Below are positions 5,923 through 42,837 of a DNA stretch of 64,000 nucleotides, piece by piece. The DNA is from Thermoplasmata archaeon (lineage in GTDB: Archaea; Thermoplasmatota; Thermoplasmata; Lutacidiplasmatales; UBA184). The notes under the pieces were generated by a model, which worked only from the letters and a program-made list of their open reading frames with translations, did not search any database and was not told the DNA's origin. The position numbers were made by a program, and so were the translations under genes. The stretch's first letter is position 1. Each line of letters begins with the position of its first letter. Location of the stretch: contig DASRSV010000018.1 of the NCBI GenBank assembly GCA_035656255.1, positions 68,384 to 132,383 on the forward strand. Reading direction: 5' to 3'.

Positions 5923-7203
5923 CTAGCCCTCGCGCTTCTTGACCTCGACCACGACGCCAGCGGCAACGGTCTGGCCCATGTCGCGGACCGCGAACCGTCC
6001 GAGCTGAGGGAACTCCTTGTACTTCTCGATCACGAGCGGCCGCTTCGGCGTGATCTTCACGACCGCGGCATCGCCGGTCTTGAGCGTCTGCGGGTTCTCT
6101 TCCGCGGACTGTCCGGTCTTCGGGTCGAGGCGCTTGAGCAGTTCCGTGAATTCGCAGGCGACCTGGGCGGTGTGGGCATGGAAGACCGGTGTGTACCCCG
6201 CCGTGATCACGGAGGGATGGTTGAGCACCTGGATGTTCGCGGTGAAGCTCTCGACGACCGTTGGCGGGTTCGCGACCGGGCCCGCGACGTCCCCGCGGCG
6301 GATGTCGTTCTTGTCGATCCCGCGGACGTTGAAGCCGATGTTGTCGCCGGGCTGCGCCTCCGTGACCTGCTCGTGGTGCATCTCGATCGACTTGACCTCG
6401 CCCGACTTCCCGCTCGGGAGGAAGATGATCTTGTCGCCCGTCTTGACCTTCCCCGTCTCGACGCGGCCGACGGGCACGGTCCCGATCCCCGTGATCGTGT
6501 AGACGTCCTGCACCGGGAGTCGGAGCGGCTTGTCGGTCGGCTTCGGCGGGACGACCAGGTTGTCGAGCGCCTGGAGCAGGGTCGGGCCCTTGAACCACGG
6601 CATGTTCGGGCTCGCCTTGTTGATGTTGTCGTCCTTGAACGCCGAGATCGGGAGGAAGACGACCTGCTGGTCGACCTTGAAGCCGACGTTCTTGAGGAGC
6701 TTCGTGAGCTCCTCCTTGACCTCGTTGAACTTCGCCTCGGAGTACTTGACCTCCTGGCGGTCCATCTTGTTGATCGCGCAGATCAACTGCGAGACGCCGA
6801 GCGTCCGGGACAGGAAGATGTGCTCGCGCGTCTGCTCCTGCACGCCCTCCGAGGCCGAGCAGACCAGGACGGCCGCGTCGGCCTGGCTCGTCCCCGTGAT
6901 CATGTTCTTGACGAAGTCACGGTGGCCGGGCGCATCGATGATGGTGAAGTAGTACTTCTGGGTGTCAAACCGCCGGTGCGCGATGTCGATCGTGACGCCG
7001 CGCTCGCGCTCCTCCTTGAGGTCGTCCATCACCCAGGCGAACTCGAACGTCGCCTTCCCCTTCGCCTCGGCCTCCTGACGGTACTTGTCGATCTCCTCCT
7101 GCCGGATGTACCCGGTATCGAGGAGCAGCCGACCGACGGTCGTGGACTTGCCGTGGTCGACGTGGCCGATGAAGACGAGGTTCAGGTGGGGCTTCTGTGC
7201 CAT
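5923..7203 (-). CDS. tuf: translation elongation factor aEF-1alpha
   Basis: [21 protein letters not shown] GTPase motifs. Archaeal/eukaryotic-type EF1A over its full length. Confidence 0.97.
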
Positions 7204-7237
7204 GCTGTGGCCTTCCCGCGCGCCGAGAAGGCTCCGC

Positions 7238-7244
7238 TATTAAG
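7238..7244 (-). promoter_or_regulatory. TATA-like element upstream of tuf
   Basis: Minus-strand reading TCCTTAATAG, about 38 nt upstream of the tuf ATG, in the divergent spacer between tuf and the methyltransferase gene. Confidence 0.3.
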
Positions 7245-7323
7245 GACTTCCTCAACGAAGGCGTGCGTGAGAGGGACGCGCACGCCGGGCGGCGGCGCCC
7301 ACGGCGAAATCCGGCGGCCGTCG

Positions 7324-7857
7324 ATGCGGTGGCCGCCGCCATGGCCCTCTCGGATTTGGGGCGCTTGGCTCCAGCGTCGCGCGACCCGTCGATGGGGACT
7401 CCGCCGTCGGCTCGACGCGCTCGCTCCCGCGCTCGGGAGTCCACGCATCGTGGTGGATGTCGGGGCCGGGACCGGCCTCTCCTCGGAGCTCCTCTTCACG
7501 CGCCTACCGTGGGGACACGACGCCCGTTGGGGGCTCCTCGAGCCGAACCGGGCGATCCTCGACAAGGTCCCCGCTCCCCTGCGCGGCGTCGCGCATCGCG
7601 CGGTCGCCGACGCGACCCAACTCCCCATCGCGTCGGATTCGGCCGATCTCGTGGTGAGCGTCGGGGTGCTGTGTTGCGTCCGCCGAGAGGCGATCGGCCC
7701 CGCCGTCGCCGAGATGCACCGGTCGCTCCGCGCGGGAGGCCGCGCCCTGATCTCCGTGCCGCCCGGGATGGCTGGCGCCACCGACCGAGCGATGACCGGC
7801 GTCGGATTCCGCGCGTTGCGCTTCGCGCGGCCGGGGTCCGTCGTCTATGAGAAGTGA
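7324..7857 (+). CDS. class I SAM-dependent methyltransferase
   Basis: 177 aa recovered from the tail of the spurious 847-aa track ORF. Motif I VVDVGAGTG, motif II-like DLVVSVGVL, then RAGGRALIS. ATG at 7324. Confidence 0.65.
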   Translation: MRWPPPWPSRIWGAWLQRRATRRWGLRRRLDALAPALGSPRIVVDVGAGTGLSSELLFTRLPWGHDARWGLLEPNRAILDKVPAPLRGVAHRAVADATQLPIASDSADLVVSVGVLCCVRREAIGPAVAEMHRSLRAGGRALISVPPGMAGATDRAMTGVGFRALRFARPGSVVYEK

Positions 7858-11524: not shown

Positions 11525-11531
11525 GCGGGCG

Positions 11532-13517
11532 GTGCGTCCGATGTCCCCGGACGAGGCGGCCGGGGACGCGGCCCCGTTCGGCGGGGCGGCCGTCCCGGCC
11601 GGGGCGACGGACGCGACGGTGCGCGCCTTGACGGACCGGGTCGCCGACGCCCGCCGAGACCCCCTCGCGTTCTGGGCCCGGGTCGGCCGCGAGTCGATCG
11701 TCTGGCGGACGCCGTTCACCCGTACCCTCGACTGGGACCCGCCGTTCGCCCGCTGGTTCCCGGACGGCACCTTGAACGTCGGTGACTCCTGTCTCGACCG
11801 CCACCTCGCCGCGGGTCTTGCGGACCGGGTCGCGTACTTCTGGGAGGGCGAGCCGGGAGAGCGTCGGGTCGTCACCTACGGCGCCCTCGCGCGCGACGTC
11901 GCCCGGCTCGCATCGGCGCTCCGCGAGCGCGGGTTCGGCCCGGACGACTTCGCGGCGATCTATCTCCCGATGATCCCCGAGCTTCCCGTCGTCATGCTCG
12001 CGCTCGCGCGGCTAGGGGTCCCGTTCACGACCGTCTTCAGCGGGTTCAGTGCGTCGGCGCTGGGAGCCCGGATCAACGACCTCGGCGCGCGTCTGCTGTT
12101 CACCGCGGACGGGGGGTACCGCAGGGGGAAGGTCGTACCGTTGCGAGCGACGGCGGCCGAGGCGCTCGCGGGCGCCCCGCGGGTGGAGACCGTGGTCACG
12201 GTCGCTCGAACGGGCCTGGACGTCCCCGGGGACCCGAAGCGCGACGTTCCGTACGCAGAGCTCCTGCGGAGCGGGTCGTCGAGCTTCGCGGATCCCGCGC
12301 TCCCCTCGAACCATCTCCTCTACCTACTGTACTCGTCCGGCACCACCGGTCAGCCGAAGGCGATCGCCCACGGGACGGGCGGCTACCTCACGCACGTCAC
12401 GGCGACGATGCGCTGGGTTCTCGACCCGCAACCGCGCGAGGTGCTCTGGTGCGCGGCCGACGTCGGCTGGGTCACGGGTCACTCGTACATCGTCTTCGGA
12501 CCCCTGTCCAACGGCGTTACGAGCGTTCTCTACGAGGGCGCGTTTGACGCGCCGCGCCCCGACCGGTTCTGGGAGATCGTCGAGCGGTACCGCGTCAACA
12601 TCCTCTACACCTCGCCGACCGCGCTGCGCGGCCTCCGCAAGCTCGGTGACGCCGGGCTCGAGTCCCACGACCTCGGCTCGCTGCGGCTGCTCGGCACGGT
12701 CGGCGAGGCGATCAACCCATCGGTGTGGCAGTGGTACTTCGACGCCGTGGGACGTCGTCGGTGCCCGATCGTCGACACGTGGTGGCAGACCGAGACGGGG
12801 GGGATCCTGATCTCGCCGGCCCCGGGGATCGGACTCGTTCCGCTCAAGCCGGGGTCCGCGACGTTCCCCCTACCGGGCATCGACGCGGATGTTGTGGGCG
12901 AGGACGGAAGTCCAGCGCCCCCGGGCACCCGCGGGTACGTCGTCCTCCGCGCGCCGTGGCCCGGCATGTTCCTCGGTCTCCATGGCGACGAGGAGCGGTA
13001 CCGCCGTACGTACTGGACGCGGTTCCCCGGGCTCTACTACTCGGGCGACTACGCCCTCAAGGACGCGGACGGCTACTTCTGGTTCCTCGGCCGGGCGGAC
13101 GAAGTGCTCAAGGTCGCCGGCCATCGGCTCGGAACGATCGAGATCGAGGACGCGCTCCTCGGGGACGCCCGGGTCGCCGAGGCCGCGGTCTGCGGCGCTC
13201 CGGACCCGATCAAGGGGGACGTCCCGGTCGCGTTCGTTGTCCTTCGTGGCGGCGTGACGACGACCCCGACGCTCGCCGATGAGCTCGCCGCCCACGTCGC
13301 GCACGCCATCGGCTCGATCGCCCGACCGCAGGCGATCTACTTCGTGGACGGGCTCCCGAAGACCCGGAGCGGGAAGATCATGCGGCGCGTCGTCCAGTCG
13401 GTCGCCTCGGGCGCGAAGGATATCGGTGACCTCACGACGCTCGAGGACGGGGCGAGCGTCGACGAGGTCCGCTCCGCCTTTCAGCGGCTGGCGCGGGAAG
13501 CCTCCCGCTCTGAATGA
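11532..13517 (+). CDS. acs: acetyl-CoA synthetase (AMP-forming)
   Basis: YSSGTTGQPKAIAHGTGGYL, DTWWQTETGG, SGKIMRRV motifs of the Acs subfamily. Confidence 0.9.
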   Translation: MRPMSPDEAAGDAAPFGGAAVPAGATDATVRALTDRVADARRDPLAFWARVGRESIVWRTPFTRTLDWDPPFARWFPDGTLNVGDSCLDRHLAAGLADRVAYFWEGEPGERRVVTYGALARDVARLASALRERGFGPDDFAAIYLPMIPELPVVMLALARLGVPFTTVFSGFSASALGARINDLGARLLFTADGGYRRGKVVPLRATAAEALAGAPRVETVVTVARTGLDVPGDPKRDVPYAELLRSGSSSFADPALPSNHLLYLLYSSGTTGQPKAIAHGTGGYLTHVTATMRWVLDPQPREVLWCAADVGWVTGHSYIVFGPLSNGVTSVLYEGAFDAPRPDRFWEIVERYRVNILYTSPTALRGLRKLGDAGLESHDLGSLRLLGTVGEAINPSVWQWYFDAVGRRRCPIVDTWWQTETGGILISPAPGIGLVPLKPGSATFPLPGIDADVVGEDGSPAPPGTRGYVVLRAPWPGMFLGLHGDEERYRRTYWTRFPGLYYSGDYALKDADGYFWFLGRADEVLKVAGHRLGTIEIEDALLGDARVAEAAVCGAPDPIKGDVPVAFVVLRGGVTTTPTLADELAAHVAHAIGSIARPQAIYFVDGLPKTRSGKIMRRVVQSVASGAKDIGDLTTLEDGASVDEVRSAFQRLAREASRSE

Positions 13518-13527
13518 TCCATTTCTC

Positions 13528-13545
13528 GGGCGGTCGCAGCCGCCC
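13528..13545 (+). terminator. GC hairpin just after the acs stop (possible terminator/processing stem)
   Basis: GGGCGG-tcgcag-CCGCCC perfect 6-bp stem, preceded by T-richer CCATTTCTC, in a convergent intergenic region. Confidence 0.2.
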
Positions 13546-13768
13546 TCGGACGACTCGGTGAGGCTGTGGCGCGAACCGCCGGGTCCCCTCGCCGCTCGGG
13601 CGAAGCGGCCGCGAAGGACGTTACCTCTACCTGGAGGCGTCGAAGCAACCGATGCCCTTGCCCCGATGCTCGAAGTTGACGACCTCCTTCCGACGGCCGC
13701 TCCGAGCTCATGCTTCGGGACCGAGCCGACGCCAACCCGGGGTCGGCGACGCACGGAACTGGTGAGGG

Positions 13769-16141
13769 TTAGGACCTGGGGGCGTGCGGCAACCCGAACA
13801 GCCCGCGAAGTCGCTCGAATCCGGGGAAGGCCCGGAACGCGTCGAGCACGGGGTCCACCGCGAGGTCGGGGACGCCGACGATGCTGCGCTCCTCGCGGGC
13901 CCGCTCGTACCAAGTAATCGCCTCGTCGAACTCGCCGAGCGCCACGTGGATCCAGGCGACCGCCCCCGCTGGAGCTTCACCGCTGCTCCGCCGTGCGACG
14001 AGGGATCGTAGGATTTCTCGCGCCTTGTCCGCCTGGCCTCCTCGAGCGAACACCGCCGCTTGATCGATTCGGTCCTGCACGGACCCTCGGCGATCCTTGT
14101 CTGCGGCGATCGAGGCCTGGGCGACCGCCTCCTCCGAACGTCCGGAAAGAAGGAGCGCGTATGCGAGGATGAACCCACTGCTCGGCGATCCGACGAGGAG
14201 GGGGCTCCGCAGCACCGTGATGGCTTCGTCGTATCTCCGCAGCCAGTAGTACTGTTGACCGAGGATCACGCGGCGTCGGGGGTTCAGCGGATCGAGCTCC
14301 ACCGCCCGAAGCGCATTCGCCAATCCCTCCTCGGGACGGCCGCAAGCCCCCGAGGCGACCGCTCGCCAGAAGTGCGCCTGAACGTTGTTCGGTTCGAGCT
14401 CGATCGCCGTGTCCAGCTCTCGGATCGCCCCCGTCCAATCGTATCGATTGTAGAGGATTGGGGCAAGGGCCGCGTGGGCTTCTCCGAGGTCCGGGTCGAG
14501 CTGGAGCGCACGGCGGACGGAGCGCTCGGCGCGCTCGAGCGCCGGCTCCAAGGGCGAGAACCCTCCGTTCCCCTGAAGTGCGAAAGTTTCGGCCAGCCCG
14601 CAATGAGCCAGCGCGAACTCGGAGTCGAGGGCGATGGCTCGCTCGAACAGGTCCACCGCCGCCGCGAGGCCCTCGCCGGTCGCCTCGAAGAACCGCTGTC
14701 GCCCCTGGAGGTAGCGGTCGTAGGCCTCGAGGCTTCGGGTCGGGATCCGGCCAAGCGGTCCGACACCGCCGCTCGCCTTCGGACCCACCAGCGATTCGGC
14801 AATCCGTCGTGCCAATTCTTGCTGGATCGCGAAGACGTTCTCAAGACGGCGATCGAACGAAACGGACCAGACGGGCTCCTCGGTATCCACGTCGACGAGC
14901 TGCGCCGTCACCCGGAGCTCATCTCCGGCGCGTCGGACGCTGCCTTCGAGGATCGTGCCGACCCGGAGCTCGCGGGCGGTTTCGGCCGCGCTCTTCGTTC
15001 CGTCCCGAAAACGCATGACCGAGGTGCGGGCGATCACCCGCAGCCCCCCGAGCCGAGAGACCGTCGCGATGAGCTCCTCGGTGAGCCCCTCGGAAAAGTA
15101 CGAGTCCGCGGGGTCGGAGCTGATGTTCCGAAACGGCAGTATCGCGATCCTCTGGCTGGGATCGAGCGCGTTCGGCGTCGGGACGGTCGAAGGCGCCGGT
15201 GTGCCGGGAGGGGGGGACCACGGCGCCGCCGAGGCGAGCGGAGCGATCGGCACGAACACATCCACGAGTCGGCGCCGAACCTCTTCCCGCTCGTACCAGA
15301 AGCGCTTGTTCTCGGCATCCCCCGGCGCGAAGAGGTGGTCGTATCGGAACCGGTCCTCCCCGAACGGGACGCGCCGGGCGCCCTCGGCCGCCATCGCCCG
15401 GAGCTGACGGGCACTCTGCAGCTCCGGCTTCGACGCGAGGTAGAGAAGAGCGAACTTCTCGATCTCTCGAATCGCGCGCCCCTCCGAGGCCGCCGCTTCC
15501 CGAAGCTGAGAGGTCGCCACCAGGAGCTTGTCGCCCGGTCCGAGCGGCGGCACGGAAAACTCGTTCCCACGGGGGATACGGCTCAGGAGGTCAGGACCCT
15601 TCGGCCGGGCGCGGAGGCGAGCCTTGAACTCCTCCAGGTCCCCGCCCCCGCTGCCCGCGAGGCAGAAGACCGTCCGATGCTGCGGCCGAGTCGCCGGCTC
15701 GAGGGCGGGGAGCAGGAGCTCGTACGGCCAGGATTGCCCCCCTTGGGCGTCGAGCTCGTCGATCAGACAGACGACGTCGCTCGGGCCGGAGTTGGCTTCC
15801 GCGAGCTGGGCGCGAAGCCCTTCCGAATCGAGCTGGGCGAGGTTCGCCTGTACGAACTGACTCTTGGTCCCCGCGAAGCGTGCCACCTGCTGTACGAGGT
15901 ACGACTTTCCGCTTCCCGGCGGCCCCCAGAGCAGGAGATTGGTGGGGTGACGATCCGCGGAAGAGAGAGCCCCGAGCACCTTGCCCCGGAAGTCCTTGAG
16001 GTGATTGCGCACGCCCTCGTCAGATCGAACGTAGCTGCCGGCAATCGTTGCTCGATCGAGGTCGATTCGGTCGAGCCCTTCGACCAACCGCTCGACGTCG
16101 CCCGCCCGGGAAACGTCGCGCTCGGCCTCCAGGTCGGCCAT
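13769..16141 (-). CDS. AAA+ ATPase / TolB-N-like domain / TPR-repeat fusion protein (putative signal-transduction regulator)
   Basis: Walker A GPPGSGKS and Walker B VVCLIDELD. Pro-rich linker. IAILPFRNISSDPADSYFSEGLTEELIATVSRLGGLRVIARTS...ELRVGTILEGSVRRAGDELRVTAQLVDVDTEEPVWS matches the TolB-N-like domain of CadC/adenylate-cyclase-type regulators. C-terminal ~350 aa are TPR-like repeats. No TM segment. Confidence 0.7.
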   Translation of the reverse strand: MADLEAERDVSRAGDVERLVEGLDRIDLDRATIAGSYVRSDEGVRNHLKDFRGKVLGALSSADRHPTNLLLWGPPGSGKSYLVQQVARFAGTKSQFVQANLAQLDSEGLRAQLAEANSGPSDVVCLIDELDAQGGQSWPYELLLPALEPATRPQHRTVFCLAGSGGGDLEEFKARLRARPKGPDLLSRIPRGNEFSVPPLGPGDKLLVATSQLREAAASEGRAIREIEKFALLYLASKPELQSARQLRAMAAEGARRVPFGEDRFRYDHLFAPGDAENKRFWYEREEVRRRLVDVFVPIAPLASAAPWSPPPGTPAPSTVPTPNALDPSQRIAILPFRNISSDPADSYFSEGLTEELIATVSRLGGLRVIARTSVMRFRDGTKSAAETARELRVGTILEGSVRRAGDELRVTAQLVDVDTEEPVWSVSFDRRLENVFAIQQELARRIAESLVGPKASGGVGPLGRIPTRSLEAYDRYLQGRQRFFEATGEGLAAAVDLFERAIALDSEFALAHCGLAETFALQGNGGFSPLEPALERAERSVRRALQLDPDLGEAHAALAPILYNRYDWTGAIRELDTAIELEPNNVQAHFWRAVASGACGRPEEGLANALRAVELDPLNPRRRVILGQQYYWLRRYDEAITVLRSPLLVGSPSSGFILAYALLLSGRSEEAVAQASIAADKDRRGSVQDRIDQAAVFARGGQADKAREILRSLVARRSSGEAPAGAVAWIHVALGEFDEAITWYERAREERSIVGVPDLAVDPVLDAFRAFPGFERLRGLFGLPHAPRS

Positions 16142-16288
16142 CCGCAGCCTCTGGCTACCGCCAGTCCCCTCAAGAAGCCGAGCGCCGGCCGAAGGCGCTT
16201 ATCGCCGCACCGGGGGCGGCGGTCGCTTGGAGCACCCGGGGGACGCGCCCGGTCGGGGGAACGTGGGGGCCCATCGACCGGCGGGGAG

Positions 16289-16362
16289 TGCCGCGGGCCG
16301 GGCTTGAACCGGCGGCTTCAAGATCTTCAGTCTTGCACTCTCCCAAACTGAGTTACCGCGGC
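16289..16362 (-). tRNA. tRNA-Phe (GAA)
   Basis: Minus strand GCCGCGG-TA-ACTC...GAGT-G-CAAGA-CTGAAGA-TCTTG-AAGCC-GCCGG-TTCAAGC-CCGGC-CCGCGGC-A. Perfect 7-bp acceptor, anticodon GAA. CCA not encoded. Confidence 0.85.
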
Positions 16363-27986: not shown

Positions 27987-29990
27987 ATGACCGAACCGAC
28001 CGCGGAACCCTCGGAGTCCCCCGCTCCGAGCAATCTCGACGCGTGGGCGAGCGCGCTCCCGTACGAGACGACCGCGAACGTCGAGGTCCCTCCGCGACTC
28101 CTCGACCAGGTGATCGGTCAGGACGAGGCCGTCGAGGTCGCGAAGAAGGCCGCGACCCAGAAGCGGCACATGATCCTGATCGGCGAACCGGGGACGGGCA
28201 AGAGCATGCTCGCCCGCTCGATGGTCGACTTCCTGCCCCGGGAGCAGCTGCAGGACATCCTCGCCTATCCGAACACCGACGACCCGAACGAGCCGAAGAT
28301 CCGCGTCGTGCCGGCGGGCAAGGGCAAGGAGATCGTCGCCGCCCAGAAGCTCGAGGCGGCGCAGAAGAAGGAGCAGCGGATGGTCTTCCTCTTCGTCGCG
28401 ATCTTCGTCGTCGTCGGGATCACGGCGTACGCCGTCGTGACGAACCCGCGCGACTTCACGCCGGTCCTGATCGCGTTCCTGATCATCCTGGTGATCTACT
28501 TCCTGTTCCGGTTGAGCATCGGCCGGACCGACACCGGGCCGGGGGTCGCGAAGCTCCTGGTCGCGCACGCGCCCGACGAGAAGCCACCGTTCATCGACGC
28601 CACCGGGGCGCATGCTGGAGCGCTCCTGGGGGACGTGAAGCACGACCCGTTCCAGTCGGGCGGCCTCGAGACGCCGCCGCACGAGCGGGTCGAGGTCGGC
28701 GCGATCCACAAGGCGAACGGCGGGGTCCTCTTCGTCGACGAGATCAACCTGCTCAAGATCGAGAGCCAGCACTCGCTCCTGACCGCGCTCCAGGAGCGGA
28801 AGTTCCCGATCGTGGGCCAGTCCGAGCGGTCGGCCGGTGCGATGGTGAAGACCGAGCCGGTCCCGGCCGACTTCGTCCTGGTCGCGGCCGGCAACGTCGA
28901 CAGCGTCCAGGCGATGCATCCCGCGCTCCGCTCGCGGATCCGAGGGTACGGCTACGAGCTGTACGTCAAGACGACGATGCTCGACACGGACGAGAACCGG
29001 ATGAAGATCGTCCGGTTCGTCGCCCAGGAGGTCGTGAAGGACAAGAAGATCGCCCATTTCGACATGGGCGCGGTCACCGAGGTCATCCGTGAGGCGCAGC
29101 GGCGCAGCGGCCGCAGCGGCCAGCTCACCCTCAGACTCCGCGAGCTCGGCGGGCTCGTCCGCGTCGCGGGCGACATTGCGAACTCCGAGGGGGCCCGGCT
29201 CGTGACCGCCCACCACGTCGTGCGGGCGAAGCGCTCGAGCCGCTCGCTCGAGCAGCAGATCGCCGACCGATACATCGAGCGGAGGAAGGAGTACCGGATG
29301 TTCGCGACCGACGGCGCCGCTGTGGGCGTCGTGAACGGCCTGGCGGCCATCAACGCGCAGACGGGGATGGCGGAGTTCTCCGGGATCGTCCTCCCGATCG
29401 TCGCCGAGGTGACGCCCGCCCAGACGAAGGACGGCGGGGTCGTGGTGGCGACGGGCAAGCTCGGGGAGATCGCACGGGAGGCCGTGCAGAACGTGAGCGC
29501 CCTGATCAAGAAGTACACCGGCGAGGACATCTCGCGCTACGACATCCACATCCAGTTCGTCGGGACGTCCGACGGCGTTGAGGGCGACAGCGCCTCGGTC
29601 TCGATCGCCACCGCCGTGATCAGCGCCCTCGAAGGGGTCCCGGTCGACCAGTCGGTCGCGATGACCGGCTCGCTCTCCGTCCGCGGCCAGGTCCTGCCGG
29701 TCGGTGGGGTGACCGCGAAGGTCGAGGCGGCGGCCGACTCGGGCCTCCGCCGCGTCCTGATCCCCGAGGACAACCGCGACGACCTCGTCCTCGAGGCGCG
29801 GTACCGCGGGGGGATCGAGGTGATCCCCGTACGCACGCTCCGGGACGTGCTCAAGTACGCCTTGGTCGGCGCGGGGTCGAAGAAGGAGTCGCTCCTCGAG
29901 CGGCTCGCCGCGATGGTCCGGGCGACCGACCGCACGATGAACCCGGAGGGCGCCCTTAAAGGCCCGCCGGGACAACCGGCGGGGTCGTGA
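27987..29990 (+). CDS. lonB: archaeal membrane-bound Lon protease (LonB)
   Basis: AAA+ module (GEPGTGKS) interrupted by two TM helices. Protease domain with DGDSAS (catalytic Ser) and KVEAA (Lys). No LAN domain. Confidence 0.92.
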
Positions 29991-33974: not shown

Positions 33975-36900
33975 TTGCCGCCACTTACGTTTTCGAGGGG
34001 CGGCCGACAGGGGCAACCCTCCCTCCGGTGGGGTTCGAACCTTCGCCGAGCCGCGGTAGCGTGGTCGATCATCACTCTCTCCGTCATCGGTTCGCTGACC
34101 GGCAGCGGCCTCGGCGCTTTCGGGCACGGGACGGGCCGATTAGCGCCGACGCCATCCGACCGTTCCCCCCCAGCTTCGGGGTCGACGTTGACCACCGTGC
34201 CCGTGCCGGTGGCGGCTCCGGCGCCCGGAGGAAACGTCGCGCCCAGCGCGAGCGTTCCGGTGAGCTCGGGGCGGGGCACGTTCTTCTCGAGCTACCAGAT
34301 GCCCGCGCCCACTCCCGGCAATCTCACCTGTAGCTACGGAACGAGCTGCTACAACGTATCCAACGAGCCGTCGCTCAACCTGACCCGAACGGGGCTCCTC
34401 GCCGTCGCCTACACCGCGCTCACGAACAACTCCCAGTGCCCACTCATGCGCAGCCAGGCGACGGTGGAAATCGGCTTCTCGGTATCTCGGAATGGCGGCC
34501 TGACGTGGAGCCGCCCCGCCTACCTCGGCAATCCGAACTGTGGGCAGGCTCAGGTGTACGCCAACGCCTGGCAGCCGAGCCTGACGTCCCTCGGCAACGG
34601 AACGCTCGTTCTGGCCTACATCCAGTCGAACTACACATACCGGGCGACGCCCCCCTACGTCGACTGCTACGCGACCACCTTCGACCGGCTCGTGGTCTCC
34701 GAGAGCTTCGACAACGGCTCGCATTGGACCACGCCGACGGGAGTGTACAACATCAGCGACCCCACCCCGAACGGAGTTTGTCCGGTGGGCTTCCCGATCG
34801 AGCGCCCGTGGGTCACCGCCTACGGCCAGACCCTTTACCTGGTGTGGGAGAACCTCACGACGCCCGTCAACGGCGGGCCTGTCGGCTCGAGCGCCGTCCA
34901 CCTCCGGGTCTCCCGGGACGGCGGGACCACGTGGGGGGCGGTCCGTCACCTACCGACGGAGTACGCGTACGACCCGTACGCCGGCCGCTACGTCGGCGAG
35001 GCGATGAATCCGACGATCACGACCGACCCCTCGGGCGCCGTCTTCATCGCCTACGCGACCAACCTTTCGCTCCAACGCAGCTGCTACCTCACGTACTGCC
35101 CGTACTACTGGCACGCGGACGTCGTCGTCGCGAGCTCGACGAACAACGGGAGCTCGCTCAATCTGTCGCGGGTCGACAACACCACGGTCCCCGACCAGAA
35201 TCCGTACGGACCGTTCAGCGACCCGTCGCCCCAACTCGCGTACTCCGCGCGGTTCGGTCAGCTGTATGCCACCTACGACGGCGGCGTCTTCGGCGAGTAC
35301 TGCTACAATTACACTTACAATTACTACTACTACGGGTCCACCTACCACGCCGCGTACCCCAACTGTTACTACGCGGACCGGCCGACCGTATTCTTCGCAA
35401 ACTCGTCGGATGCGGGCCGCACCTGGTCGGTCGCCCACGCCGTCGACCCGACGCTCATCCTGCCGTCGGGGGGACCTCCCGACCGGCTCTATCGGCCCGC
35501 GCTCGCCGTCGACGCCAGCGGTCGGATCCACCTCGAGGCGGCGTTCACGAACGCCTCGGTCTGCGGCCTCGTGCAGTACGCGTACTCGACCTCGTACTAC
35601 TACAATTACACCGTCTGCGGCGCCGAGCAGGAGGAGTACTTTTCGAGCGTCGACAACGGGAGCAGCTTCGTCGGCCCGATCACCGTGGCTTCGAACGCGA
35701 CGCCGTATTCGCAGAGCTCGTACGAATGGGACGGAGAGTACGCGACGATGGTCGCCGGCTACGGCCACGTTTGGCTCGGCTGGGTGAACGACCAGTGCCC
35801 CACGTGGAACTCGAGCGGCTGCTACTACGGGGGCCCGTCGGGTTCGTCCCGGGTCGTGGTCTCTGAGCTCTACACCGGCCCCGGGCTCGCGATCACCTTC
35901 CGGGAGAAAGGGCTCCCGAACGGGACGCTCTGGAGCGCCGAGCTCTTCGGGAACCAGCGGGCGACCGCGGCGCCGGGGACGCTGAGCGTTTCGGGCGTCC
36001 CCCCCGGCGAGTGGCTCACGTGGTCGTCCCCGTGGGTCAATCTGTCGTACGGAGTCAAGTACCAGACATCGCTCAATCCCCCGTCGCCGGGCGCGTTCCA
36101 GGTCAACTCGACCGTCATCGTGACCTTCGACGGTTTCGGACTCCTGAACCTCACCACGTTCCCCGCCCTCGGCTACAATGTCTGGGCGTCGCGCGGGGCG
36201 ACCAACTACAACCTCACTCCGCTCCCGTCCGCGACGTGGCTCCCGCTCGGGCACCGCGTCAACCTCTCCGCGGCGGTGCTCGGGAACCTCTCGACGAGCT
36301 CGGTGTGCAGCTACTATTGCTCGTACTACAACCTGAGCTTCCTATCGTGGACCGGCGCCGGGCCCGGGAGCGTGAATTCGGTTGCGCCCGCTCCGGCGCT
36401 CCACGTCGCAGGCGCGATCAACGAAACCGCGAACTTCCAGTTCGACTCGATCTGTTCGGGGTACAATCGGTCGCTGGGGTACTCCCCGGCCCTCGCGTGC
36501 CTGAACTTCACCTACCCGCTCGTGTTCCACGAGTCCGGACTTCCGGCCGGCACGCCGTGGGCGGTGACCGTCGGCACCAACCTCACGAACGAGAGCACGG
36601 GCCCGTGGCTCGACTTCGAGGTCGGGGTCGGCCCGGTGCCGTTCACGGTCTGGAGCTCTCGCGCCTCGACCCCGAACAACGTCTGGGTCGGCGTGCCGTC
36701 GACGCCGTCGCCGGCCGAGCTCCCGATCGACCGCACGATCAACGTGACGTTCCACGAGGTGGCGCCCGCGAACGCGACGTTCGAGGGCCGGTTCCTCGCG
36801 GTGGGGCTGCCGGCCGGGACGAACTGGTCGGTCACGATCGGGAACCTCTCCTACGGGACCTCGGGACCGCTCCTCGGTCGGAACGTGAGCGGCGGTCCTC

Positions 36901-38489
36901 TCGACATGAACGTCACGCCGATCGTGGGCACGAACGGTACGGGATACTACCCCGCGGGATGGTCGATCGAGCCGTTCGATATCGGGACCTCCCCGATCAA
37001 CGGGAGCTCCGAGCCGTTCGCCTTCTCGCCGAACAGCTCCTTCGCCGTGACGATCGACTTCCGACCGATGTACCTCCTCCGCGTCCTCGCCACGGTCGGG
37101 GGATCGGCCGGCCCGTCCGAGACGTGGGTGCCCTCGGGCGGATCGGTGGTGTTGCACGAGCTGCCGAACGCGGGCTTCCGATTCGGCGGATGGACCGGAG
37201 CCGGCCCCGGGGCGACCACCTCCGCGCAGGCGAACGAGTCGAGCCCTGTGGTCTCGCCGCTCGGGGCGGTGACGGAGACGGCCGAGTTCTACGCGTACGT
37301 TCCCCTCTGGTCGATCGCCGTCCTGGCCGCGGGCCTCCCGACCGGCCAGGGGTTCCCCGTCCAGTTCGGCCCGTCGACCTACTGGCTGCACGTCGGGGAC
37401 CGGTTAGGAGGGATAGCTTCCGGCGACTACCGCGTCGTCTTCCCTCCGGCGTACTCGAACAGCTCGAACGACACACGGTTCGTCGCGACGTCGTGGAGCT
37501 CCTCGTACGGGCGGCTCGCGAACGGGACGCTCGCGATCGGCGCCAACGGCTCGATCGTGGTGACGTTCGGTGCCCAGTTCGCCCTCACCGTCGCCTCGAC
37601 GCCGCACGGGAGCACGTCCCCACCCGCCGGGCGCTACTGGTTCGCCGCGGGGTCGACCGTGACCCTCGGCGCCGCTCCCGACCCGGGAGCGCAGTTCGTC
37701 AGCTGGGCGGGCGGCGGCTCCGGGGCCATCGCGTCCAGCCAACCGTCGATTTCGGTGCTGATGACGGGACCGACCTGGGAGTCCGCCCGGTTCGCGCTCT
37801 CGGGGGGGGCCGCGGGCTCGTTCACGCTCACGGCGACCGAGACCGGCCTCCCTGCGCGGACCACCTGGTCGATCGCCGCCGGCGGGAGCGGCATCGCGGG
37901 GAGCGCGTCGTTCCTCGTCGTGCCCGGGCTCAACGGAACCTACCCGCTCGCCGTACCGGCGGTCTACATCTCTCCCGACGAGCGGTTCGTCGCGCAGGCG
38001 CCCACCTCGGTGCAGGTCACCGCGGACGCGAGCGTGGCCGTGACGTTCACCGAGCAGTTCCGCGTGCAGCTGACCAGCTCCCCCGGTGGCACTGTCGCTC
38101 CCTCCGGCGTCCTCTGGGTCGCCCTCGCCGGCTCGGTCAACGTCCGCGCGCAGCCGAACGCCAGTGCCGCGTTCCTCGGATGGAACGGCACAGGAGTCGC
38201 GGCGTGCTCGAGCGCCTCCCTCGACTGCATCCTGAACGTGACCTCGCCCCTCGTCGTCGTGGCCTCGTTCGGGCCCCACGCCCCGCCCGCCCCTTCAGCG
38301 GCGACCTCCGGCATCGGTTCGGCGACCGTGCCACTGCTCCTCGTGGCGGCCGTCCCGGCCGTCGTCGGGGTCGTGCTGGGGGTCCTCGTCCGACGCGTGC
38401 GCGGTTTCCGACGGGCCTCGCCTGATTCCGAGGTTGGAGCTTCCCCCCCCGGGGAGGAGGTCGAGGCCGATGGCCCACCCGTGGGCTGA
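33975..38489 (+). CDS. giant secreted surface protein: signal/anchor, BNR (Asp-box) beta-propeller, alternating GLPxGTxW and GYxFxGWxG (InlB-B-repeat-like) modules, C-terminal TM anchor
   Basis: 1504 aa. Asp-boxes SVSRNGGLTW, SRDGGTTW, SSDAGRTW, SVDNGSS. Five modules with [F/L]xExGLPxGTxW. Four with F[RV]FxGW[TA]G.G.G. Dozens of N-x-S/T sequons. Tyr/Cys-rich inserts (CYNYTYNYYYYGSTYHAAYPNCYY). C-terminal ATVPLLLVAAVPAVVGVVLGVLVRRVRGFRR. Confidence 0.75.
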   Translation: MPPLTFSRGGRQGQPSLRWGSNLRRAAVAWSIITLSVIGSLTGSGLGAFGHGTGRLAPTPSDRSPPASGSTLTTVPVPVAAPAPGGNVAPSASVPVSSGRGTFFSSYQMPAPTPGNLTCSYGTSCYNVSNEPSLNLTRTGLLAVAYTALTNNSQCPLMRSQATVEIGFSVSRNGGLTWSRPAYLGNPNCGQAQVYANAWQPSLTSLGNGTLVLAYIQSNYTYRATPPYVDCYATTFDRLVVSESFDNGSHWTTPTGVYNISDPTPNGVCPVGFPIERPWVTAYGQTLYLVWENLTTPVNGGPVGSSAVHLRVSRDGGTTWGAVRHLPTEYAYDPYAGRYVGEAMNPTITTDPSGAVFIAYATNLSLQRSCYLTYCPYYWHADVVVASSTNNGSSLNLSRVDNTTVPDQNPYGPFSDPSPQLAYSARFGQLYATYDGGVFGEYCYNYTYNYYYYGSTYHAAYPNCYYADRPTVFFANSSDAGRTWSVAHAVDPTLILPSGGPPDRLYRPALAVDASGRIHLEAAFTNASVCGLVQYAYSTSYYYNYTVCGAEQEEYFSSVDNGSSFVGPITVASNATPYSQSSYEWDGEYATMVAGYGHVWLGWVNDQCPTWNSSGCYYGGPSGSSRVVVSELYTGPGLAITFREKGLPNGTLWSAELFGNQRATAAPGTLSVSGVPPGEWLTWSSPWVNLSYGVKYQTSLNPPSPGAFQVNSTVIVTFDGFGLLNLTTFPALGYNVWASRGATNYNLTPLPSATWLPLGHRVNLSAAVLGNLSTSSVCSYYCSYYNLSFLSWTGAGPGSVNSVAPAPALHVAGAINETANFQFDSICSGYNRSLGYSPALACLNFTYPLVFHESGLPAGTPWAVTVGTNLTNESTGPWLDFEVGVGPVPFTVWSSRASTPNNVWVGVPSTPSPAELPIDRTINVTFHEVAPANATFEGRFLAVGLPAGTNWSVTIGNLSYGTSGPLLGRNVSGGPLDMNVTPIVGTNGTGYYPAGWSIEPFDIGTSPINGSSEPFAFSPNSSFAVTIDFRPMYLLRVLATVGGSAGPSETWVPSGGSVVLHELPNAGFRFGGWTGAGPGATTSAQANESSPVVSPLGAVTETAEFYAYVPLWSIAVLAAGLPTGQGFPVQFGPSTYWLHVGDRLGGIASGDYRVVFPPAYSNSSNDTRFVATSWSSSYGRLANGTLAIGANGSIVVTFGAQFALTVASTPHGSTSPPAGRYWFAAGSTVTLGAAPDPGAQFVSWAGGGSGAIASSQPSISVLMTGPTWESARFALSGGAAGSFTLTATETGLPARTTWSIAAGGSGIAGSASFLVVPGLNGTYPLAVPAVYISPDERFVAQAPTSVQVTADASVAVTFTEQFRVQLTSSPGGTVAPSGVLWVALAGSVNVRAQPNASAAFLGWNGTGVAACSSASLDCILNVTSPLVVVASFGPHAPPAPSAATSGIGSATVPLLLVAAVPAVVGVVLGVLVRRVRGFRRASPDSEVGASPPGEEVEADGPPVG

Positions 38490-41400
38490 TCCCTCCTGTC
38501 CACGCCGGCAAGGTGGTCGCGCGCCCGCGTGGCTTGCCTGCGCGGTCGGGGCACTATCGGTCGCGGTCCTCCTTGCCGTCCCGCCGTCGGACCATGGGAA
38601 TGGCCGGCTCCAGGGTACCCAAGGGCCGGCCGTGCGCGCCACGGTTGAGCCGGCCGTTTCGAACCGGGCCCCCACCGCCCCGTCCGGCTCGATGAATACG
38701 TCGGTCACGGGCGTCTTCTTCGCGAACAACACCTCGTTCGCCGCGCCGGGGGCCGGTCGTCAGTACTGCGTGGTGGGTCCGTCGACCTACTACTACTACC
38801 AGTACGACTACTGCTACCCGCAGGCCCAGAATCCGTCCGTCGTCCGTCTCGCGAACGGCGCGATCGGGGTCGGCTACTCGGTCTACACGAACCGGTCGAC
38901 GACCGCGTGTACGGCCGAGGCATCGCAGACGAACGCCCGGGTGGCGTTCTCCGTCTCCGCGACGAACGGTTCCACGTTCGCCGCCCCCGTCGACATCGGC
39001 AACGGAACATGCCGATTCCTCCAGGCGATCGAGCCGTCGTTCGCCGTCGCGCCCGACGGGACGCTCTATGCGGCGTTCATCGAAGAGAACGCGTCGAGCC
39101 AGGTGTACGGAAACGGCTCGACGCTCCCGGGGGATTTCGCGAACCGGTCGACCGATGCGCTCGCCTTCGTCGTCTCCCGCTCGAACGGGAGCTCGTTCTC
39201 GGCGCCGGTGCCGCTCGACGCGAGCGGGAACCTCGCGCGCCCGATCGTGGCCGCGTTCGGCCGATCCGTGTACGTCCTCTACGAGAACCTCACGAACACC
39301 ACGACCCCGATCCCTTCTGCGGTGAATCCTTCCCCGACGCCGATCGCGCTCCGGCTACTCGCCTCGGCGGACGAGGGGGCGACGTGGTCCGGCCCGTACA
39401 CCCTCCCCGGCCTGAACCGCAGCCAGGGATACACGGCGTTCGCCGGTTCGATGGCGGTCGAGCCGACCGGGAGCGTGGTGGTCGCGTACGCGACGAACCG
39501 GAGCTGCGTCCTCGACTACGTCAGCTACTGCTACCGATACGGCGAGCAGATCGTCGTCGCTGCGTCGACGACGAACGGGTCGACCTGGGGGGTGCCGACG
39601 GTCGTCGGCGCCGGGGTGGGGGAGGCCCGGTGCTTCGACTACGTGAACACCACCTCGGCGTGCCCCCGCTACCTCTTCGAGTGGGCGCCCGAGACGACCG
39701 TGGCGTTCGACCCCGCCGTAGGACGCCTCGTCGTCGCCTGGGCCGGGACGTTCGACCGGCACGCCTCGAACGTGTTCGAGAACTACCTCACGACCGGCGT
39801 CTACGTGGCGATCGCCTCCGCCCCGACCGGTCCGTGGACCGTGACCGCCTCGCATCTCCAGCCGGACCCGAGCAGCCTCGACGACTACTACACGCCGGCC
39901 CTCGGTGTGGTCGCTGGTTCCGTCTATCTCACCTACACCTGGAAGAACGCCACGACGTACTGCTACTCCTACTGCGACTACCTCGACGGGACGATCACCC
40001 AGTGGACGCAGTGGAGCCCGAACGGGCGGAACTGGAGCGCGTCCATCCTCCTCGGGCTGGCGAAGGTCTACGGCTATCCCGTCGCGACCCCCGAGACCTG
40101 GCCCGGGTACCTCGCGTCGGTCGGCGCGACCGCCGCGGGGCGACCGGTGATCGCCTACGCGCTCAACCAACCGGCGACCAGCACCAGCTGGTACTCGAGC
40201 AGCCTGGGAAAGTACCTGTACAACACCAGCTACGCGACCGTCCTCGCGCTCGCCCATCCGTATGTCGGGCGGACCGTGACGCTCAACCTCACGGAGACGG
40301 GCCTTCCCGGGAACGCTTCGTGGACGGTCGCTGTGGACGGCAACAACTTCACCGCGTCCACGCCGACGATCCTGGTAACGGACGTCCCGCCGGCGTCGGG
40401 CGTTCTGCTGCACCAGTTCCCGTTCCCCGCCGCGTACCGGACGATCTCCACCTCGTCCACGAGCACCCCACAGTTCGCGACCTACACCGTGAACGCGACC
40501 GTCCTGGTCGCCTACACCGTCCAGTACGGATTCGCCCTCTCCTTTGAGCCGACCACGATCAGCTACGTCTCCGTCGGGGTGGACGTCGCCGGATACTACT
40601 ACTCGGACTACGAGTCGACGTCGCTCTACAACGGCGTGACCTACCATTCGGACTACGCCTACCCCTCGTTCCCGTGGTACCTCCCCCTCGGTGCGCGGGT
40701 CACCTTCGCACCGTCGTCGACGCCCCCGATCGCGTACTGGAACGGGACGGGACCGGGCGCGTTCAGCGGGCTCGGCGGCTGGGCGAACGTGACGATCGAT
40801 GCCCCGATCAACGAGACCGGCTGGGGTGGAGCGTACGGCCGCTCGTCCGTCACCTTCCAGTCGCTCGGCCTCCCCCCCAGCTCGAACTATACGTTCGGCT
40901 TCCGCGGGACGAACCACACGGCACCCGGCAACGCCTCGGTCGTCGTCGCCAACGTCACGACCGGGGCGTACCCGATCGGTCCAGCGCAGGCGACGGCGCT
41001 CCGCCCGGGTTGGGAGTACTTCGGCCGCGCGTCGGTCGGAGATACCGTCGTGGTACCGGTCGAGCCACTGGTGAACTTCTCCTACGTCCTCGTCGATGTC
41101 GGCGCCCCGGCGGGCCCGGCACGGTTCCACGCGGTCGGCTTGACCGCCGGGACGGTCTGGCGGCTCGGGTTCAACGGCACGACGTACAGCTCGGCCACCC
41201 CCTGGATCAACCTCACGACCCGGCCCGGCACGTTCGACATCGCGCCGCAGCCGGTCGTCGCGGCGAACGGCTCGGCCGGCTATGCTCCGTTCGACCTGGG
41301 ACCGTCGATCAACGTCACGACGGGATCCACCTACAACCTGAGCTTCACCGCGGCCTATCGGGTCGAAGCGACGGCCGGGGTCGGCGGGTCGGTGTCGAAC

Positions 41401-42837
41401 GGGAGCCCCGGCTGGGTCGCGAGCGGGACGAATCGTTCGTTCACGGAGACGCCGAACTCCGGTTACACGTTCACCGGCTGGGAGGGGACCGGTGTCGGCT
41501 CCTACTCGGGGCCAAGGCCGACCGCGAGCGTGGTCGTAGGGGGACCGGTCACGGAGGTCGCCGGTTTCGCCCCGCTCGCCTCGGACCGTTTCAACGTTAC
41601 GTTCCTCGAATCCGGGATCCCGTCCGGCACCTTGTGGTCCGTCGACGTCAGCGGCGCGGGATACGCCTCGGACCGGCCGACGATCACCGTGCCGAGCCTT
41701 CTCTCGTGCTCGGCCGGGACGGCGGGACGCTATTCCCTCTCGGTGCCGGACGCGTTCGCGAACGGCACGGGGGAGACACGGTTCTCCGCGATCAGCTATC
41801 CCACGGAGTTCTGCACCGACGGCGGAACGGTCGTGGGGGTCGCGTTCGAGGAGCGGTTCCGCGTCGGCGTCACATCGACCGATGGTGGGGCGGCCTCCGT
41901 TTCGGCCGGGGGGCTGGTCGGTCCCGGACCGGTCTGGGTCCCGAACGGTTCCCCGGTCGAGCTCGTCGCGCAGGCGGCGGCCGGCTTCCGGTTCGTCGAA
42001 TGGGAGGGGAGCGGGACGGGAGCGTACTCGGGAACATCGGCGTTCGAGAACTTCACACCCGCCGCGAGCGTCGACGAGCTCGCGGTCTTCGGTCGAAGCG
42101 CGGGCGCCTCAACCCCGACCTTCACGGTCGCATTCACCCTCGCGGCCGAGATTCTTCCCGGGACGACATGGAGCATCGACTTCGCGTCGCGGGAGTTCTC
42201 CTCCTCCACCCCGGAGCTGAACGTCTCGGGACTACCCTCCGGAACGTACACGCTCACCGTGCTGCCGGCCTACGGACCGGACGGCCAGACGGAGTACATG
42301 CCGAGCGGCGGCTCGGTCCAGATCTCCGTCACGGAGAACCTCTCGTGGTCGGTCGCCTACGCGGCGAGCTTCTGGGTCGCGGTCGCGGCGACCCCCGGCG
42401 GGTTCGCCGGCCCCGGCTCGGGTTGGGTCCCCGCCGGCGCCGGGATCGCCCTGAATGCGACCGCGGCCCCCGGATACACGTTCGACGGATGGGTAGGGTC
42501 CGGACCGGGACGGAACTATTCGGGGCCGGACGCGAATCCGACGTTCCGCGCCACCGGGCCGGTCTCGGAGCTCGCGGTGTTCACTCCGGCCATCGCCTCG
42601 ACGCTGCGCCCTTCGGCCGCGCCGGCCGTCGCACCGTGGATCTGGGCGGCCGTCGGCGGGACCGGTCTCGCGATCGGACTCGGGGCCGGAACATGGCTGA
42701 TCCGACGGCGTCCTCCCGGCGCCTCTGCCGTCCGTCCCGCGGAGCCGGAGCCAGATGCGACCGAGCCCCCCTGGCAGGAGGTTGTGGCCCCGGGCACGAA
42801 CGGGAGTGTCGAGGACCTCCCCCCGGAGGAGCCGTAG
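38434..42837 (+). CDS. giant secreted surface protein, paralog of the upstream gene (same architecture)
   Basis: 1467 aa. Asp-boxes SADEGATWSGP, STTNGSTWGVP. GLPxGTxW modules (ETGLPGNASW, ESGIPSGTLW, ILPGTTWSIDF). GYTFTGWEGTGVGSYSG-type modules. YYYYQYDYCYPQ insert. C-terminal TM WIWAAVGGTGLAIGLGAGTWLIRRRPP. True start is probably the ATG at 38470 (MAHPW...), downstream of the preceding stop. Confidence 0.75.
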   Translation: MELPPPGRRSRPMAHPWADPSCPRRQGGRAPAWLACAVGALSVAVLLAVPPSDHGNGRLQGTQGPAVRATVEPAVSNRAPTAPSGSMNTSVTGVFFANNTSFAAPGAGRQYCVVGPSTYYYYQYDYCYPQAQNPSVVRLANGAIGVGYSVYTNRSTTACTAEASQTNARVAFSVSATNGSTFAAPVDIGNGTCRFLQAIEPSFAVAPDGTLYAAFIEENASSQVYGNGSTLPGDFANRSTDALAFVVSRSNGSSFSAPVPLDASGNLARPIVAAFGRSVYVLYENLTNTTTPIPSAVNPSPTPIALRLLASADEGATWSGPYTLPGLNRSQGYTAFAGSMAVEPTGSVVVAYATNRSCVLDYVSYCYRYGEQIVVAASTTNGSTWGVPTVVGAGVGEARCFDYVNTTSACPRYLFEWAPETTVAFDPAVGRLVVAWAGTFDRHASNVFENYLTTGVYVAIASAPTGPWTVTASHLQPDPSSLDDYYTPALGVVAGSVYLTYTWKNATTYCYSYCDYLDGTITQWTQWSPNGRNWSASILLGLAKVYGYPVATPETWPGYLASVGATAAGRPVIAYALNQPATSTSWYSSSLGKYLYNTSYATVLALAHPYVGRTVTLNLTETGLPGNASWTVAVDGNNFTASTPTILVTDVPPASGVLLHQFPFPAAYRTISTSSTSTPQFATYTVNATVLVAYTVQYGFALSFEPTTISYVSVGVDVAGYYYSDYESTSLYNGVTYHSDYAYPSFPWYLPLGARVTFAPSSTPPIAYWNGTGPGAFSGLGGWANVTIDAPINETGWGGAYGRSSVTFQSLGLPPSSNYTFGFRGTNHTAPGNASVVVANVTTGAYPIGPAQATALRPGWEYFGRASVGDTVVVPVEPLVNFSYVLVDVGAPAGPARFHAVGLTAGTVWRLGFNGTTYSSATPWINLTTRPGTFDIAPQPVVAANGSAGYAPFDLGPSINVTTGSTYNLSFTAAYRVEATAGVGGSVSNGSPGWVASGTNRSFTETPNSGYTFTGWEGTGVGSYSGPRPTASVVVGGPVTEVAGFAPLASDRFNVTFLESGIPSGTLWSVDVSGAGYASDRPTITVPSLLSCSAGTAGRYSLSVPDAFANGTGETRFSAISYPTEFCTDGGTVVGVAFEERFRVGVTSTDGGAASVSAGGLVGPGPVWVPNGSPVELVAQAAAGFRFVEWEGSGTGAYSGTSAFENFTPAASVDELAVFGRSAGASTPTFTVAFTLAAEILPGTTWSIDFASREFSSSTPELNVSGLPSGTYTLTVLPAYGPDGQTEYMPSGGSVQISVTENLSWSVAYAASFWVAVAATPGGFAGPGSGWVPAGAGIALNATAAPGYTFDGWVGSGPGRNYSGPDANPTFRATGPVSELAVFTPAIASTLRPSAAPAVAPWIWAAVGGTGLAIGLGAGTWLIRRRPPGASAVRPAEPEPDATEPPWQEVVAPGTNGSVEDLPPEEP

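Follow-up and report, generated by a model that had tools for sequence, protein, structure and literature searches.

The window analysed here is a stretch of 64,000 nucleotides from a Thermoplasmata archaeon (contig DASRSV010000018.1). On its minus strand, a gene encodes a protein of 790 amino acids with three parts: an AAA+ ATPase module, a TolB-N-terminal-like domain, and an array of tetratricopeptide repeats (TPR). Far from unique, the protein typifies a large, uncharacterised and already deposited family of archaea and bacteria. Its NTPase belongs to the AAA+ class and not to the STAND class. Tentatively, and with a little less than even confidence, we propose a soluble cytoplasmic signalling or scaffold ATPase. 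More precisely, it would be an ATP-dependent oligomeric switch gated by the TPR array.

A three-part protein and its family

The open reading frame (ORF) starts with ATG and encodes 790 amino acids plus a stop (Table 1). Its product is 100% identical to a deposited NCBI entry, "tetratricopeptide repeat protein [Thermoplasmata archaeon]". This entry comes from a metagenome-assembled genome (MAG), as do all the sequences in this work. The identical protein, more than 100 full-length homologues, and an AlphaFold2 model of the N-terminal part with a predicted local distance difference test (pLDDT) of 94 indicate a real gene and not a chance ORF in GC-rich DNA. On the identity and the homologues, an overlapping plus-strand ORF of 763 amino acids was discarded as a GC-rich artefact.

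Table 1. Positions of the gene, its parts and associated features. Coordinates are those of the window, except where one of our locus labels (L numbers) is given.
Feature	Position	Strand	Basis
Complete ORF: AAA+ module, linker, TolB-N-like domain, TPR array	13769..16141	-	ORF call, homologues, domain searches
ATPase module, residues 14-298: AAA+ alpha/beta core, helical lid, family-specific C-terminal extension; mobile unit recurring in many architectures	15248..16102	-	
Walker A GPPGSGKS, residues 73-80, invariant W72 just before	15902..15925	-	motif and conservation
Walker B VVCLIDELD, residues 123-131; D128, E129, D131 invariant	15749..15775	-	motif and conservation
Residues 161-190, LAGSGG...RPKGPDLLSRIP: S164, R179, R188	15572..15661	-	conservation, secondary-structure register
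SARQLR in lid, residues 243-248; R245 invariant	15398..15415	-	conservation
C-terminal extension of module, residues 257-298 (R..P..E.R..YD.LF..GD.ENK.FW), family-specific	15248..15373	-	
Variable Pro/Ala/Ser-rich linker, residues 299-328	15158..15247	-	14% median identity
TolB-N-terminal-like alpha/beta domain, residues 329-452 (LPF.N.S.D...YF..G.TEEL; EGSVR; R.TAQL.D; W)	14786..15157	-	
TPR array, residues 469-760, fast-evolving part	13862..14737	-	Pfam TPR models, PDB consensus-TPR matches
tRNA-Phe (GAA), fixed border of variable insertion slot	16288..16362	-	
DUF35 / tRNA-Phe slot, 4.8 kb of lineage-specific content: acs and the target gene, convergent	11525..16287		
~180-aa gene beside tRNA-Phe in relatives	L086-L161, e.g. 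L090 ~7081-7623	-	
NikA-like and PIN pairs	L001 2465-3111 and 8490-9136		

An earlier note, made from the letters of this DNA alone, had read an AAA+ ATPase, a TolB-N-like domain and a TPR array in this ORF. The domain searches and structure matches agree with it. The Pfam AAA model (PF00004) scores 37.1 bits over residues 69-164, well above its gathering cutoff (21.2). A dozen Pfam TPR models (TPR_11, TPR_2, TPR_17, TPR_19, and others) match residues ~490-750. Two parts are equally constrained in 50 full-length homologues, each at ~52% median identity: the ATPase module (75 near-invariant columns) and the TolB-like domain (28). The TPR array has 30%, and the linkers 14-19%; the linker of residues 299-328, a flexible joint between module and TolB-like domain, has no conserved column in this set.

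For the middle domain (residues 329-452), no match to Pfam TolB_N is listed, and likewise none to PF04052. Two NCBIfam models align with the C-terminal unit. Positions 114-535 of the HilA/EilA model (NF009037) align with residues 322-751 (E 2e-12; 46 bits vs a cutoff of 589), so that the non-DNA-binding part of the model covers the last 430 residues of the protein. Likewise, positions 307-631 of TIGR04510, a cyclase of a peptide-modification system, align with residues 385-720 through its non-cyclase part (E 8e-12; 44.5 bits vs a cutoff of 400). At the fold level, the TolB-N-like assignment was confirmed by structural similarity to the N-terminal domain of TolB (PDB 1c5k, 18% identity) and the periplasmic domain of CadC (3ly7, 12% identity). 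PelC, CsgG, and LpoB are also fold relatives. The likeness to HilA/EilA, TIGR04510, TolB, and CadC is at the domain level only, and for TolB and CadC it is one of fold. HilA/EilA and the cyclase and kinase proteins carry a winged helix-turn-helix (wHTH), a cyclase or a kinase as output, whereas the N-terminal output of the window protein is the AAA+ module. In agreement with the earlier note, the 790 residues gave no match to the cyclase domain PF00211, and no DNA-binding (wHTH) or other output domain was detected with Pfam and NCBIfam. Unlike TolB, the protein ends in TPRs and not in a six-bladed beta-propeller. ToxR/CadC-like regulators have a wHTH domain and a single transmembrane (TM) segment, and the window protein has neither.

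In other proteins, the TolB-like and TPR unit follows a class III cyclase, a Ser/Thr kinase or an OmpR-type wHTH domain. These relatives share the motifs LPF.N.S.D..YFADG.TEELI, EGSVR, and R.TAQLID. The TolB-like domain alone, used as query, returned only fragments of 100-220 amino acids or stand-alone proteins without Pfam domains, so this search was useless for counting partner domains.

The protein is predicted to be soluble and cytoplasmic, as the earlier note had proposed. Its N-terminus is acidic, with no signal peptide and, in a hydropathy scan only, no TM segment. The highest 19-residue Kyte-Doolittle mean is 1.63 and falls within a TPR helix, against 2.5-2.6 in true TM segments of the wHTH relatives. 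The note also stated that in bacteria the TolB-like and TPR unit is usually periplasmic and fused to a wHTH or cyclase domain. This stands in part. The wHTH relatives do have a TM segment between output and TolB-like domain, but the sampled cyclase and kinase relatives have none, in a sample that is small and biased to relatives of a cytoplasmic query. From these relatives, the unit seems to be often cytoplasmic. HilA, whose model aligns with the unit, is itself a cytoplasmic regulator.

The homologues form more than 100 full-length clusters at 90% identity (750-830 amino acids, coverage >90%, 35-65% identity). Nearly all the named sources are Thermoplasmata MAGs, with a few Thermoprotei and Bathyarchaeota, and JGI labels the proteins "TolB-like protein/TadD". 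The earlier note had called this architecture unusual in an archaeon. This does not hold: it is the dominant one of the family, with those clusters in Thermoplasmata, and it is also present in Nitrososphaerales and Bathyarchaeia.

A profile of the module alone was searched against 1.84 billion representatives. It found 316 clusters at E<=1e-30 (491 at E<=1e-10), followed by generic AAA proteins only. The gap between the two groups means that the module family is sharply bounded. Neither Pfam nor NCBIfam has a dedicated model for it. Among GTDB species representatives, the module was confirmed at 227 loci of archaea and bacteria, with 40-61% identity to that of the window. These include Thermoplasmata, Nitrososphaerales/Nitrosopumilus, Bathyarchaeia, and "Methanobacteriota" MAGs, and further Actinomycetota, Chloroflexota/Dehalococcoidia, Deltaproteobacteria, Dormibacterota, and others. 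In several genomes the module is present 3-5 times.

Local mapping of 244 proteins with hidden Markov models gave the architectures. The order module-TolB-TPR is present in 121, and the permuted order TolB-TPR-module in 17. The coupling of the module to the TolB-like and TPR unit is thus independent of order. A long N-terminal domain precedes the module in 38 proteins, another 38 have the module with short extensions only, and in three the module is followed by a long C-terminal region; several are duplicated forms. Pfam partners of the module are alpha/beta-hydrolase, HD, KaiC-like ATPase, class III cyclase, and PNP_UDP phosphorylase domains, and also genuine STAND NTPases (NB-ARC/AAA_16) with MalT-like TPRs. 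One protein, P0101, joins KaiC-like, module, cyclase, TolB-like, and TPR parts in a single chain.

Two further observations concern copies of the module. Full-length and short fragmented copies adjoin in tandem at L026, L042, L053, and L055 (Nitrososphaerales/Nitrososphaerota MAGs), which indicates local duplication and decay of family members. In addition, a bacterial form of 358 amino acids (Actinomycetota, Chloroflexota) has a recurrent upstream ORF without Pfam match at 10 loci (L021, L023, L030, L034, L040, L043, L044, L058, L066, and L081). It is a possible true partner gene of that architecture.

Motifs, fold, and class of the ATPase module

The boundaries of the module were set by proteins that carry it C-terminally, where the chain ends directly after the FV.L.D motif. 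The structure models are of single domains. That of the N-terminal module, built from an alignment of 69 sequences, has a predicted template modelling score (pTM) of 0.88. It shows an alpha/beta/alpha core followed by an all-helical lid, as in solved AAA+ proteins. With this model, Foldseek gave E values of ~1e-9 to spastin, p97 D1, RuvB, Lon, and bacterial enhancer-binding proteins (bEBPs), and the leading matches also include Rix7, Vps4, and FtsH. STAND structures are absent from the 50-60 best fold matches.

Walker A and Walker B, reported as intact by the earlier note, are invariant across 50-69 homologues, including K79, D128, and E129. Other residues are invariant or at least 90% conserved: W72, D131, the W138-P139-Y140-E141 signature just past Walker B, G163-S164, R179-P180-K181-G182, D184-L185-L186-S187-R188, and R245. 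The C-terminal extension conserves R257..P259..E262.R264..Y267-D268.L270-F271..G274-D275.E277-N278-K279.F281-W282. By its conserved residues, the module of the window protein appears catalytically complete. It has every invariant residue of the family (W72, K79, N100, DExD, WPYE, GS164, RPKG, R188, R245, and YD.LF..GD..NK.FW).

In the model, S164 lies at the end of strand beta4 and is presumably sensor 1. R179 and/or R188, before beta5, are the presumed arginine finger(s). R245 in the lid is presumed to be sensor 2, by analogy with the GAR-x-L pattern of other AAA+ clades. All four residues fall where the secondary structure of the model would lead one to expect them.

The module resembles the classical AAA proteins (Cdc48/p97 D1, Vps4, spastin; PF00004) in the P-loop alpha/beta core and the helical lid. 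Against PDB sequences, the family profile aligns only from Walker A to Walker B, with Cdc48/p97 and Vps4 as the best matches (E ~1e-9). Past Walker B the sequence similarity stops. Classical AAA proteins carry RPGR at their second region of homology, and the RPKG motif appears to lie there; its RPKG...SR resembles RPGR...R. The module differs from this clade in the WPYE motif, in the 40-residue C-terminal extension and in its sensor-2-like arginine, a residue atypical for classical AAA. The position of pore loop 1 (KLAG in Cdc48 D1, WFG in D2) is taken by N100-L101-A102, an invariant triplet of the family without any aromatic residue.

The window also encodes a putative archaeal LonB-type protease (27987-29990, plus strand), recognised by eye from the translation. 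Its AAA+ domain has the Walker A GEPGTGKS and is interrupted by a hydrophobic membrane insertion; the motif ALRSRI is present, and the C-terminus looks like a Lon protease region. The profile alignment of the module to this LonB covered Walker A only, because of the membrane insertion.

The STAND proteins with TPR sensors (MalT, AfsR, Avs/NLR-like) are similar in layout. In them, too, a long TPR array comes after the NTPase, paralogues are numerous, and the appended domains vary. However, the NTPase of the window is not of this class. In the Pfam search of the 790-residue protein, AAA_16 scored 28.2 bits, below its cutoff of 32.6, NPHP3_N reached only E 0.03, and NB-ARC and NACHT gave no matches. 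No winged-helix domain follows the helical lid, and the family has a conserved arginine at the presumed arginine-finger position, unlike STAND. The earlier note had named two findings that would overturn it, an N-terminal domain of an ordinary STAND/NB-ARC family known from archaea and a TolB-like region without profile support. Neither came about: the NTPase is AAA+, and the TolB-like fold is confirmed.

Proposed mode of action and its alternatives

The idea of a nucleotide switch or scaffold, already put forward by the earlier note, remains the best reading and one that we infer. In our proposal, the TPR array would bind a protein or peptide ligand, and the conserved TolB-N-like domain would relay or stabilise the ligand-bound state. 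This state would gate how the AAA+ module assembles with itself, a step that would need ATP and an arginine acting in trans (R188 and/or R179). The output would be the assembled nucleotide-bound oligomer, which may recruit or rearrange TPR-bound partners without threading a substrate. The logic would be that of a STAND- or bEBP-type nucleotide switch on a different ATPase.

Several results point this way. The TolB-like and TPR unit is suggested as the sensor because its N-terminal partners in other proteins (cyclases, kinases, OmpR-type wHTH domains) are outputs typical of signalling. The distribution of identity, high in module and TolB-like domain and low in TPR array and linkers, argues for a conserved transducer with a variable sensor. 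The invariant NLA at pore loop 1 argues against threading. The gene seems self-contained, since no neighbour recurs with this architecture in 83 loci and it is convergent with acs, the acetyl-CoA synthetase gene.

Other points weigh against this proposal. We found no paper on the module or on the cytoplasmic TolB-like and TPR unit, and no experimental datum for any family member. Nor is the module described in the conflict-systems paper of Kaur et al. 2020 (PMC7159879). Oligomerisation, the role of the arginine finger, and the ligand of the TPR array belong to the proposed part of this picture, and the lack of a TM segment comes from a hydropathy scan. True unfoldases (Cdc48/p97, Vps4, spastin) are among the closest matches in sequence and fold, which leaves some probability for a remodelling role. 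Fusions of the module to STAND and TPR, PNP_UDP, and alpha/beta-hydrolase domains suit conflict or defence as well as housekeeping signalling.

A wider claim seems to us less likely than not. The N-terminal ~285 residues might represent an undescribed AAA+ family of archaea and bacteria, used as a portable ATP-dependent assembly switch in either order on TolB-like/TPR sensors and on enzymatic or STAND partners. The Thermoplasmata proteins would then play, without a STAND domain, the part of NLR/Avs-type hubs for pattern recognition or signalling, and they would have expanded in archaea of soil and sediment. A hetero-ring of sensors and effectors, in which paralogues with different appended domains co-assemble, was also considered and down-weighted. 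Within a genome, the paralogues mostly have the same architecture.

Little is understood of how uncultured Thermoplasmata and Nitrososphaerales transduce signals. In its conservation (~40-60% identity across archaea and bacteria), the module is roughly on a par with many housekeeping proteins, and it is joined time and again to a sensor unit that in other settings drives cyclases, kinases, and HilA-type regulators. If it is an ATP-gated assembly switch, it would be a second, non-STAND solution among nucleotide-switch receptors. The cytoplasmic TolB-like domain of the COG5616 type, widespread and unstudied, would then be placed in a functional context. Several hundred clusters now labelled only "AAA family ATPase" or "TPR protein" would become easier to annotate.

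An antiviral or conflict sensor is an unlikely explanation, and one with several facts behind it. Here the TPR array would recognise an invader protein and the AAA+ module would oligomerise, as in Avs/STAND receptors, with the response left to separate effectors or to hydrolase-bearing paralogues. The fusions of the module to NB-ARC/AAA_16 with MalT-like TPRs, PNP_UDP_1, alpha/beta-hydrolase, and HD are consistent with it. So are the multiple paralogues of several genomes, the tandem or fragmented copies, the fast evolution of the TPR array, and the place of the gene in a variable slot beside a tRNA, absent from relatives. The homologues at L001 and L002 sit among PIN/VapBC-type toxin-antitoxin genes. 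However, the window protein lacks an effector domain and has no conserved neighbour. The paralogues of one genome are mostly of one architecture and not sensor/effector pairs. PADLOC-DB 2.0 gave no significant match (the best was mad8, E 0.004, over 40 residues around the P-loop), and no known defence gene or integrase lies nearby, where the neighbours are acs, topA, and uvrA.

We give an equally low probability to a classical AAA remodelling chaperone. Its TPR array would serve as an adaptor within the same chain and bring a client to a ring that unfolds or takes apart proteins, much as SNAP does for NSF and the cofactors do for Cdc48. The PF00004 score above cutoff and the best sequence matches (Cdc48/p97, Vps4) fit such a protein, as do the leading fold matches (Rix7, Vps4, FtsH, spastin, p97 D1) and RPKG at the RPGR position. 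One long relative has a weak SNAP-like TPR match. Against it stand the invariant NLA in place of an aromatic or hydrophobic-Gly motif in pore loop 1, the end of the similarity to classical AAA after Walker B, and the conserved, sensor-2-like R245, atypical for the classical clade.

An accessory regulator of cyclic-nucleotide signalling is quite improbable. It would sense or control the class III cyclases that have the TolB-like and TPR unit, for example by hetero-association. Cyclases with this unit are the nearest non-AAA relatives of the C-terminal part, and they adjoin module genes in four Nitrososphaerales loci. P0101 combines all these parts, an alpha/beta-hydrolase protein with a domain that binds cyclic nucleotide monophosphates (cNMP) belongs to a neighbour cluster found at 9 loci, and a fusion of the module to an HD domain exists. 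Nevertheless, the association occurs in a minority of loci, and the architecture of the window has no conserved neighbour. Of the flanking genes that were identified (9.6-22.8 kb; the rest of the 64-kb window was not scanned for such genes), none was recognised as coding for a cyclase, a cNMP-binding protein or a phosphodiesterase.

A role at the cell surface, in the envelope or the periplasm and in the manner of TolB, CadC or PelC, is effectively refuted. In its favour, nearly all proteins that share the fold of the middle domain are periplasmic or lipoproteins. The acidic N-terminus, the lack of signal peptide and TM segment and the TM-free cyclase and kinase relatives oppose it, and an ATPase domain is not known to work outside the cytoplasm.

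The slot beside tRNA-Phe and neighbouring genes

The tRNA-Phe (GAA) gene lies 146 nt upstream of the target gene on the same strand, and it is the only co-directional neighbour. On the other side, acs (11532-13517, plus strand; AMP-binding and ACAS_N domains) starts 8 nt past a DUF35/OB-fold gene.

We compared this locus with relatives anchored on TopA. There were 77 metagenomic loci with 70-75% TopA identity, and ~30 had enough upstream sequence. In these ~30, the gene order is thiolase, DUF35/OB-fold, gap, tRNA-Phe, topA, creatininase-like, and uvrA. The tRNA-Phe is 99-100% identical over 74-75 nt and has the same position relative to topA. None of them has the target gene or acs at the slot between DUF35 and tRNA-Phe. 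The gap measures 0.1-3 kb in relatives with other cargo (a conserved ~180-aa gene, an MFS-like protein, predicted secreted proteins), against 4.8 kb in the window. Because ~30 relatives keep the surrounding block without either gene, the target gene is a recent, lineage-specific insertion at a variable slot, with acs in the same insertion. It is an accessory insertion at a hotspot adjacent to tRNA-Phe and not part of core metabolism.

The earlier note had suspected an acquisition at this place, and the comparison supports it. The closest homologues are all from Thermoplasmata, so the source was probably within this class, by transfer or by relocation, and not an import from bacteria. The GC content at third codon positions (GC3) of the target gene is 0.81, vs 0.88-0.95 in its neighbours, and its overall GC is unremarkable. 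Neither an att-like repeat of the tRNA-Phe nor an integrase was found at the locus. A scan for sigma-70 promoters and terminators says little about an archaeon.

The ~180-aa gene (MERRFARLRRGP...GMCLSVFLVL...) stands directly beside the tRNA-Phe in many relatives, and the window lacks it.

The earlier note had also proposed a survey of neighbours in related genomes. The homologues on four long contigs have neighbourhoods that are all different. An all-against-all comparison of the flanking ORFs of 83 loci found no recurrent partner for the module-TolB-TPR architecture, and a conserved operon partner was rejected on this basis. Recurrent neighbours are present only at other architectures: the short ORF upstream of the 358-aa form, the alpha/beta-hydrolase (with cNMP-binding), a cyclase with TPR, and a thioredoxin-methyltransferase. 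By tblastn, the window contains no paralogue of the target gene.

A cyclic-nucleotide theme is visible in a minority of these neighbourhoods. At L066 (2756-4207, minus strand) and L019 (2264-4252, plus strand), the genes that adjoin module genes encode an alpha/beta-hydrolase fused to a cNMP-binding domain and a class III cyclase with TPR. In another case, the closest long-contig homologue (Thermoplasmata MAG AcS5-58, L001) is flanked on both sides by same-sized pairs of a NikA-like (79 amino acids) and a PIN protein (136 amino acids). This suggests a duplicated toxin-antitoxin cassette that brackets the homologue.

Finally, two tandem, slightly overlapping ORFs of ~1,500 amino acids are present in the window (33975-38489 and 38434-42837, plus strand). 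They carry BNR_2 and divergent InlB B-repeat (Flg_new_2) domains and probably encode large secreted or surface proteins.

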